This document shows positions 22,050-22,226 of a stretch of DNA of 64,000 nucleotides, in pieces (within the stretch, counting starts at the first letter, position 1; every line of letters starts with the position of its first letter). Below the pieces are notes generated by a model, which was not told where the DNA came from, ran no database searches, and saw only the letters and a program-made list of their open reading frames with translations. Both the position numbers and the translations under genes were made by a program. Location: assembly GCF_006345805.1 (NCBI RefSeq), contig NC_043014.1, positions 51,522,001-51,586,000 on the forward strand. Direction: 5' to 3'. The stretch is from Octopus sinensis (taxonomy: Eukaryota).

Positions 22050-22226
22050 TTTTTCTCTCCTTGTTTCTCTCCTTGTTTTTTTTCTGTGTACCTTTCTGTC
22101 GAAGAGCGTAGGCTCGAAACGTAAAAGACTTTTTCTATTTCTATTCCTGAGCGCCATACTGATACATTTGTTTGTTTGTACTCCACCTGCCTTCGTCTTT
22201 TGTTCATTTTCGTAAACCTTCCCATT
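22050..22226 (+). mobile_element. Short repeat family D with minimal hammerhead-like fold
   Basis: CTTT-CTGTCGA-A-GAGC(GTAG)GCTC-GAAA-CGTA-AAAG at 22092-22127; ends at a (TA)n-rich tract. Confidence 0.8.

Follow-up and report, generated by a model that had tools for sequence, protein, structure and literature searches.

What kind of element carries the hammerhead-like fold that recurs in short repeats along this octopus DNA, and does the fold still cleave RNA? The window, by which we mean the whole stretch of 64,000 nucleotides from Octopus sinensis, has 33% G+C and many microsatellites. An earlier note, made from the letters alone, had marked five repeats of about 170 bp (at 18760, 22050, 28822, 44048 and 47300) as one family, here called D, with the stems of a minimal type I hammerhead. 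When built into an nhmmer profile, the five copies recover exactly themselves, all on the plus strand, and nothing else in the 64 kb below E 1.6; they occupy about 1.5% of the window. Size and starts needed correction, as the copies are 159 to 210 nt long and four of them start 16 to 35 nt upstream of these coordinates, with bounds judged by eye at the microsatellite edge.

The copies sit within TA/CA microsatellites. The 22050 copy (22015..22224, plus strand; delimited from the sequence and the profile search, with bounds by eye) is a whole unit between TA-rich tracts, and the (TA)n-rich tract on its 5' side (21981..22013, strand not assigned) is its likely insertion target. The other copies lie at 18733-18916, 28822-28980 (with a shorter 5' side), 44030-44224 and 47284-47455. 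TA flanks are present on the left of 5/5 copies and on both sides of 4/5, compared with 11.9% and 4.1% of 20,000 random placements, respectively, in a test that is partly circular because the bounds were drawn at the microsatellite edge. From hammerhead position 17 to the 3' end there are 96, 101, 98 and 98 nt in four copies and 66 nt in the 47300 copy, which ends 32 nt earlier than the 44048 copy. The 5' start lies 60 to 81 nt ahead of core position C3 in four of the five, and the 18760 and 22050 copies begin at nearly the same base. No copy has a tandem or inverted partner in the window; all five are solitary.

The single family of the earlier note is a real relationship, but it consists of two distantly related subfamilies: D1 with three copies (18760, 22050 and 28822) and D2 with two (44048 and 47300). 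By blastn, D1 copies are 80-84% alike and the D2 pair is 69% alike over 96 nt, and no match between D1 and D2 was found within the window at E<0.1. On the other hand, a profile of D1 alone detects both D2 copies (E 1.1e-5 and 6.6e-5), and a profile of D2 alone detects all three D1 copies (E 1.4e-7 to 1.7e-3), in both cases over the motif and the block behind it. In the 22050 copy, this common block is contained in the U-rich 3' region at 22128..22224 (plus strand).

The motif of the 22050 copy spans 22092..22127 on the plus strand, as assigned by a descriptor match with one core mismatch and by pair count. Stem I (22092-95/22124-27) encloses the first core strand (22096-22102), an extra A at 22103, stem II with the loop GTAG (22104-07/22112-15) and the stretch GAAA-CG-U-A (22116-22123). 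An ACGU palindrome at 22119..22123 (positions 15.1-16.1), which could pair between two copies, leads to the predicted cleavage position A17 at 22123 in the numbering of PMC4209133 (this and other papers are cited for the parts of their text consulted). The D2 motifs lie at 44097-44129, with a stem I of 3 bp and a C-C outer pair, and at 47359-47393, with U at G16.2. Core position 6 (22099) is U instead of A in 3/3 D1 copies of the window, and both D2 copies have C4 together with A6. The non-canonical cores named at first, A6U in D1 and U4C in D2, are thus present in the sequence, as is the kept stem II, GAG(C)/(G)CTC with the loops GTAG, TCA and CAATA.

We searched both strands of the window with the minimal-hammerhead descriptor of Cervera and de la Pena 2014, allowing at most one core mismatch. 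No perfect-core match was found in the window, and there were three matches with one mismatch (22096 with U6; 44100 and 47363 with C4), every one inside a D repeat. In 30 block-wise dinucleotide-shuffled windows, only five one-mismatch matches were found in total (mean 0.17 per window), and the enrichment exceeds chance. At all three matches the stems are within the descriptor limits (stem I 3-7 bp; stem II 3-7 bp with a loop of 3-10 nt) and an extra base follows A9. The hammerhead pattern that had been claimed for five copies fits three of them with one change, but the 18760 and 28822 copies are further decayed. The core of the former reads C3A, U6, N7=A and A14T, with a C-A mismatch in stem II and GATA in the second strand, while the first strand of the latter reads CTGTGAC (with U6) and is accompanied by G16.2A. 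The first core strand CUGANGA is found in 0/5 copies, because of which we file D as a hammerhead variant and not as a member. The second strand GAAANNUH is found in 4/5 (18760 excepted), and the G10.1-C11.1 pair in 5/5. The palindromic CG at 15.2-16.2, and with it the ACGT palindrome that had been put forward for the family, is seen in 3/5 copies only, and in about 91% per site in run X1 of the contig survey below. The motifs also share a U-rich lead-in with the published minimal-hammerhead consensus.

Pairing is well kept over the five copies (37/40 pair cells, 92.5%). With regard to covariation, the stem I arms of the earlier note (CTTT at 22092 with AAAG at 22124, and GTTT at 47359 with AAAC) are present, but their covariation is not significant: of eight pairs, a single one is altered on both sides, once, in the 47300 copy; in the 44048 copy that pair is mismatched (C-C); and 199/500 shuffles reach the observed score in a count over five sequences only. 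Isolated motifs do not fold better than shuffles (z -0.04, 0.52 and -0.05 for the 22050, 44048 and 47300 copies), which is expected because the motif has no helix III. Stem I is not predicted in any copy once 30-nt flanks are added. Cofolding of two 22050 motifs gives a stem II-swapped duplex and not a hammerhead dimer, in nearest-neighbour folding, which omits the hammerhead core. The proposed check against the Rfam hammerhead models was negative: neither 22030-22230 nor 47285-47455 gave a match, even with E allowed up to 10. For the whole window, there was no hammerhead among the 150 of 490 Rfam matches listed, which were microsatellite-driven miRNA matches below threshold.

To see the core beyond five copies, contigs of four public runs were aligned to 22012-22230 at 80% likeness, and differences were listed from 4%. 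The aligned records numbered 18,880 (X1), 7,897 (X11), 4,130 (X10) and 127 (X20), under three organism labels: A (X1 and X20), B (X10) and D (X11). X10 and X20 are presumed RNA in the form of contigs and have no bearing on expression, strand or RNA ends. U6 has no alternative letter at >=4% in any of the four runs, nor is there any differing site across 22092-22099. It is a trait of the D1 subfamily and not decay of the 22050 copy, because no other letter reaches that level in any run. Next to it, N7 (22100) takes all four letters: C 33%, A 29%, T 24% and G 14% in X1, with the alternatives A/G/T at 29/10/36% in X11 and 29/10/39% in X10. It is the sole site of the aligned stretch with three alternative letters, and its neighbours C3, U4, G5, U6, G8 and A9 have no alternative at 4%. 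In hammerheads, according to the descriptor in PMC4209133, N7 alone among the positions of the first core strand is free to vary. Since U6 and N7 are adjacent, variation is equally detectable at both. The comparison that the earlier note had proposed, a core more conserved than its flanks, is not significant per site: other letters reach at least 10% at 1/36 motif sites and 14/148 flank sites (Fisher p 0.31). N7 is thus the single strong sign of selection.

All other variants in the motif are below 10%, namely those at the loop G (22108), at G12 (4.2% in X1) and at the outer stem I G (6.7%, without a matching change at 22092). In X1, 22120 (C15.2) shows C>T at 8.7% and 22121 (G16.2) shows G>A at 8.6%. 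These nearly equal changes could reflect either decay of a CpG or a CG-to-UA change in which both bases are coupled and the palindrome is preserved, two cases that look alike in per-site tallies. The summed depth in X1 is 8.8-10.6 million at 22100-22123 and 2.2-3.6 million at 22052-22091 and 22140-22203, a three- to four-fold peak on the motif in a quantity that is not copy number and is inflated at graph branches. Hundreds of records depart just outside the motif (at 22091 or 22132-22135) into related but shifted letters, one line of which resembles the 44048 copy, and the motif is therefore common to more subfamilies than the flanks are. A 5'-truncation gradient read from the depth profile was rejected, since both ends taper alike. 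Seventeen X10 records extend upstream of 22017 with non-microsatellite letters, at an agreement of 0.47 that is too poor for reading the end of an ORF. Base 22161 is G in the window copy and A in practically all contigs of the four runs, as a private change or an assembly error.

The closest known relatives are the minimal hammerheads in the pseudo-LTRs of metazoan Penelope-like elements (PLEs), mostly occurring as single motifs of truncated copies, with several families per genome (PMC4209133). Their published consensus has an extra base after A9, a G10.1-C11.1 pair and a palindromic 15.2-16.2, and Fig. S3 there includes Lottia and Crassostrea (PMC4209133). Family D is like them in the short stem I, the extra base, the G10.1-C11.1 pair, the lack of helix III, CG at 15.2-16.2, the U-rich flanks, the mostly solitary copies and the several consensus families. 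It differs in U6 (D1) and C4 (both D2 copies) and in a stem II of 3-4 bp, at the short end. The only core variant named in the consulted part of PMC4209133 is U3-A8, and six core spellings of the U6 or C4 type are absent from the consulted part of its supplement text. The earlier note read the motif as related to minimal type I hammerheads, with cores that are non-canonical and of uncertain activity; the descriptor enrichment and the four-way variation of N7 bear this out, and the D motif likely works like, and descends from, the PLE minimal hammerhead.

PLE insertions are known for strong 5' truncation, a (TA)n preference and an optional 30-40 bp tail (PMC8557442). Partial tandems and inverted pairs also belong to the PLE picture, and no D copy is part of one. 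In Octopus bimaculoides, the PLE Hydra-1_Obim targets (TA)n, and its hammerhead lies at 2403 of its 2507 nt (PMC8557442 supplement), so that the target and the distance of about 100 nt between hammerhead and 3' end are as in D; unlike D, it has an intact core, a 7-bp stem II, a real helix III and another sequence. The Octopus PLEs Naiad_Obim and Naiad_Ovul have (TA)n targets like D, whereas Naiad 3' ends, in the consulted part of the supplement, are unlike it. Because sequences or ends differ, we place D outside Hydra-1_Obim, Naiad_Obim and Naiad_Ovul. Identity with any of Naiad_Obim, Naiad_Ovul, Naiad_Omin and Hydra-1_Obim was rejected on their differing ends in that part of the supplement, where line breaks could mask short matches. 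PLEs account for 6.83% of the Octopus vulgaris assembly and form 190 consensus families there (PMC13282606 supplement). For the giant squid, 235 hammerhead matches to Rfam have been reported (PMC6962438). The earlier pointer to Penelope-like pseudo-LTRs was right, and the TA flanks and the motif position match PLE traits.

Taken together, we lean towards the reading that D repeats are the 3' (pseudo-LTR) ends of PLEs in TA microsatellites and that the U6 hammerhead of D1, by analogy with its relatives, is weak and dimer- or protein-assisted. In a six-frame scan of the window, four motif patterns for reverse transcriptase and GIY-YIG had no match, although a truncated copy may well lack such an ORF; the likely PLE link is therefore drawn from anatomy: the architecture, the TA flanks and the motif about 100 nt from the 3' end. 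ARAGORN found no tRNA gene in the window. Scans with patterns of the window motifs had no match in collections of metagenome, genome and viral contigs, which are mostly of prokaryotes and viruses and so have no bearing on animals. The shorter 3' side of the 47300 copy would fit a PLE end with an optional tail, in one case. We lean slightly to D copies being 5'-truncated ends of a full-length PLE, and give nearly even prospects to a short non-autonomous unit that borrows the PLE protein, which is kept open because four of the five starts lie 60-81 nt before the core and two D1 starts are nearly identical. The proposal of an undescribed non-autonomous family bearing a ribozyme is in this sense possible, but it goes beyond what the copies show, as solitary hammerheads of truncated PLEs are common in print (PMC4209133).

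According to this reading of PLE ends, a source element would be transcribed, and a PLE protein (reverse transcriptase plus GIY-YIG endonuclease) would nick a TA tract and copy the RNA from a site near the RNA 3' end. Most insertion products would be short, retaining only the element end with the hammerhead, and the solitary genomic copies would be inert. The fold would be kept under selection in source elements while N7 drifted, with D repeats mobilised by the PLE protein. Weak cleavage with the help of a dimer or a protein would, slightly more likely than not, occur in source elements and none in the solitary copies. We expect weak cleavage because natural A6C and U4C cores are poor but functional and because cutting in a Poseidon element needs protein. 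In the first case, hammerheads with A6C (phage Bcep176) and U4C (a viroid) have low but real activity (Perreault et al. 2011, PMC3088659). They are changed at the same two core positions as D, and unlike D they are single full-length ribozymes with helix III, whereas D is a minimal motif of high copy number in which the change has become fixed. A6U has no occurrence in the consulted part of PMC3088659, and a search of the open-licence literature for an A6U hammerhead found none, with a twister paper alone surfacing. In the second case, the hammerhead of the Anolis Poseidon element PAc (Frangieh et al. 2024) cuts only with protein, and insertion in vitro is independent of cutting (PMC11167929). 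With its AT-rich target, optional tail and protein-assisted hammerhead, PAc may serve as a mechanism model for D (PMC11167929), although PAc comes with a full ORF and assayed activity, and no ORF was linked to D in the window. Minimal PLE hammerheads themselves did not cleave as monomers and cleaved poorly as dimers (PMC4209133), and what hammerheads do in PLEs with an endonuclease is described as unclear (PMC8557442).

The same PLE origin may also go with a D1 motif that does not cleave, an explanation that we consider possible but doubtful. Here the pairs U6-A15.1, U4-G16.2 and G5-C15.2 would turn the core into a closed rod, with the dimer palindrome hidden inside, and the element would retain the fold because it signals to the PLE protein or acts as an on/off switch; in D2, C4-G16.2 would make this helix stronger. 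For the 22050 motif folded in isolation, the modelled probability of G5-C15.2 is 0.40-0.98 with U6, depending on N7, against 0.01-0.10 with A6, and in the 44048 motif it is 0.23 with C4 against 0.02. A6U and U4C both raise complementarity to the same three bases. Moreover, the Poseidon element PAc inserts in vitro without needing cleavage (PMC11167929), and Naiads thrive without canonical hammerheads (PMC8557442). However, the helix is lost once 30-nt flanks are added (its probability is then at most 0.03 in every copy), it is missing in the 47300 copy (G16.2U), it has the support of no compensatory change, U4C occurs in a functional viroid hammerhead (PMC3088659), and the pairing was noticed post hoc. 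In its extended form, an abundant short element mobilised by PLEs would have turned its hammerhead into a non-cleaving or switchable fold, with A6U and U4C independently hiding the dimer palindrome and the remaining core selected, and we regard this form as unlikely.

A neutral fossil, whose founders acquired U6 (and C4) and lost cleavage without cost, with N7 variation as a mutational accident, is improbable. It would agree with a core invariance that is not significant against the flanks, with the badly decayed state of 2/5 window copies and with the lack of demonstrated covariation. It accounts poorly for three changes, two of them transversions at 10-29%, all at the sole free core position of about 184 well-covered sites, while the neighbours of N7 have none at 4% in three deeply covered runs and the depth peaks on the motif.

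Animal non-LTR retrozymes have tandem units with complete hammerheads and circular RNA (PMC7229834; bioRxiv 10.64898/2026.07.22.740005). Like D they are short, non-coding and PLE-related with a type I hammerhead; they differ in that D is solitary and its cores are altered. A strict retrozyme origin of D, in which tandem units are cut into monomers, circularised and re-inserted, has quite a low probability in our view. The unit of 160-210 nt falls in the retrozyme size range (PMC7229834), some retrozyme families consist to a large extent of solitary monomers, and PLE pLTRs are the source from which retrozymes derive (bioRxiv 10.64898/2026.07.22.740005). On the other hand, the retrozyme reading fails on tandem arrangement, as 5/5 copies are solitary, and there is no helix III. 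Among the joints listed in the four runs, there are short skips and places where the T-rich tract is locally duplicated, and none links a 3' end to a 5' start, although microsatellite-spaced or contig-collapsed arrays could escape such a list. In addition, the cleavage position is in the middle of the unit, whereas a re-inserted monomer would be expected to begin or end there. Finally, the motif is small and low in information, and a purine-rich island within a U-rich repeat might resemble it by chance. This explanation could appeal to the missing Rfam match, the missing perfect core and the folding no better than shuffles in 3/5 short motifs, but it is most improbable in view of three matches against 0.17 per shuffled window, of two subfamilies that differ in their loops and in their single core change, and of an N7 free to vary.

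Compared with the textbook A at position 6, the fixed U6 core across D1 is the one unusual point of the family. In the open-licence literature, which was the scope of our search (the repeat libraries Repbase, Dfam and that of O. vulgaris lie outside it), we found no description of family D or of a fixed U6 core. A 2017 survey of PLE hammerhead variants by Lunse, Weinberg and Breaker may already list U6 or C4 cores. A widely spread subfamily in which U6 is fixed and N7 free offers a natural way to test whether cleavage is needed or the fold alone. If D1 merely cleaves weakly like other minimal hammerheads, it simply adds a further PLE end to the roughly 190 PLE families of octopus; if the extended non-cleaving form were true, it would be natural evidence that PLE hammerheads are kept to signal for protein recognition or timing and not in order to cleave. 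Descriptor searches that demand CUGANGA also miss whole high-copy families, as in this window with five copies and no perfect match.

Other repeats of the window include a second, unrelated hammerhead in an inverted repeat at 39311-39516 with 62-nt arms that are 90% complementary. From 39409 onward on the minus strand, its core CUGAAGA is intact and goes with a stem II that is long but imperfect (about 11/13 pairs, by eye) and with GAAA-CUC-G-GAG-UU, and the plus-strand arm repeats the second half of this hammerhead. A short helix III of this type is the form listed for Hydra-clade PLEs (PMC8557442). This hammerhead has no Rfam match and was not caught by the scripted descriptors. The arrangement looks like that of an inverted, 5'-truncated PLE and would support PLE activity in the region. 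Directly after the 28822 copy and its TA tract, 29027-29251 holds a 116-nt palindrome with 58-nt arms (93%) and an AT-rich lead-in, the minus-strand end of which resembles the D1 end (ATCTCCCT). Judged from the sequence, it is possibly another inverted remnant of PLE type, tail to tail with D. It is adjoined by a tandem array of a CA/TA-rich unit of about 40 nt at 29240-29900.

The commonest family of the window is a dispersed repeat of about 400 nt with an internal CA/TA microsatellite, found at 9381-9759, 12008-12412, 23237-23694, 24306-25254, 41177-41371, 48933-49373, 56644-56961, 57927-58310 and 60906-61329, and two of its copies form a large inverted pair at 24322-25254. A SINE-like unit of about 184 nt is present as three tandem units, 88-90% alike, at 37573-38161 and as solitary units at 27944-28168, 46890-47034, 55456-55638 and 58390-58631. 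A long trinucleotide array of the (GAT/GTT)n type at 14618-15260 gives rise to spurious poly-D, poly-H and poly-M frames.
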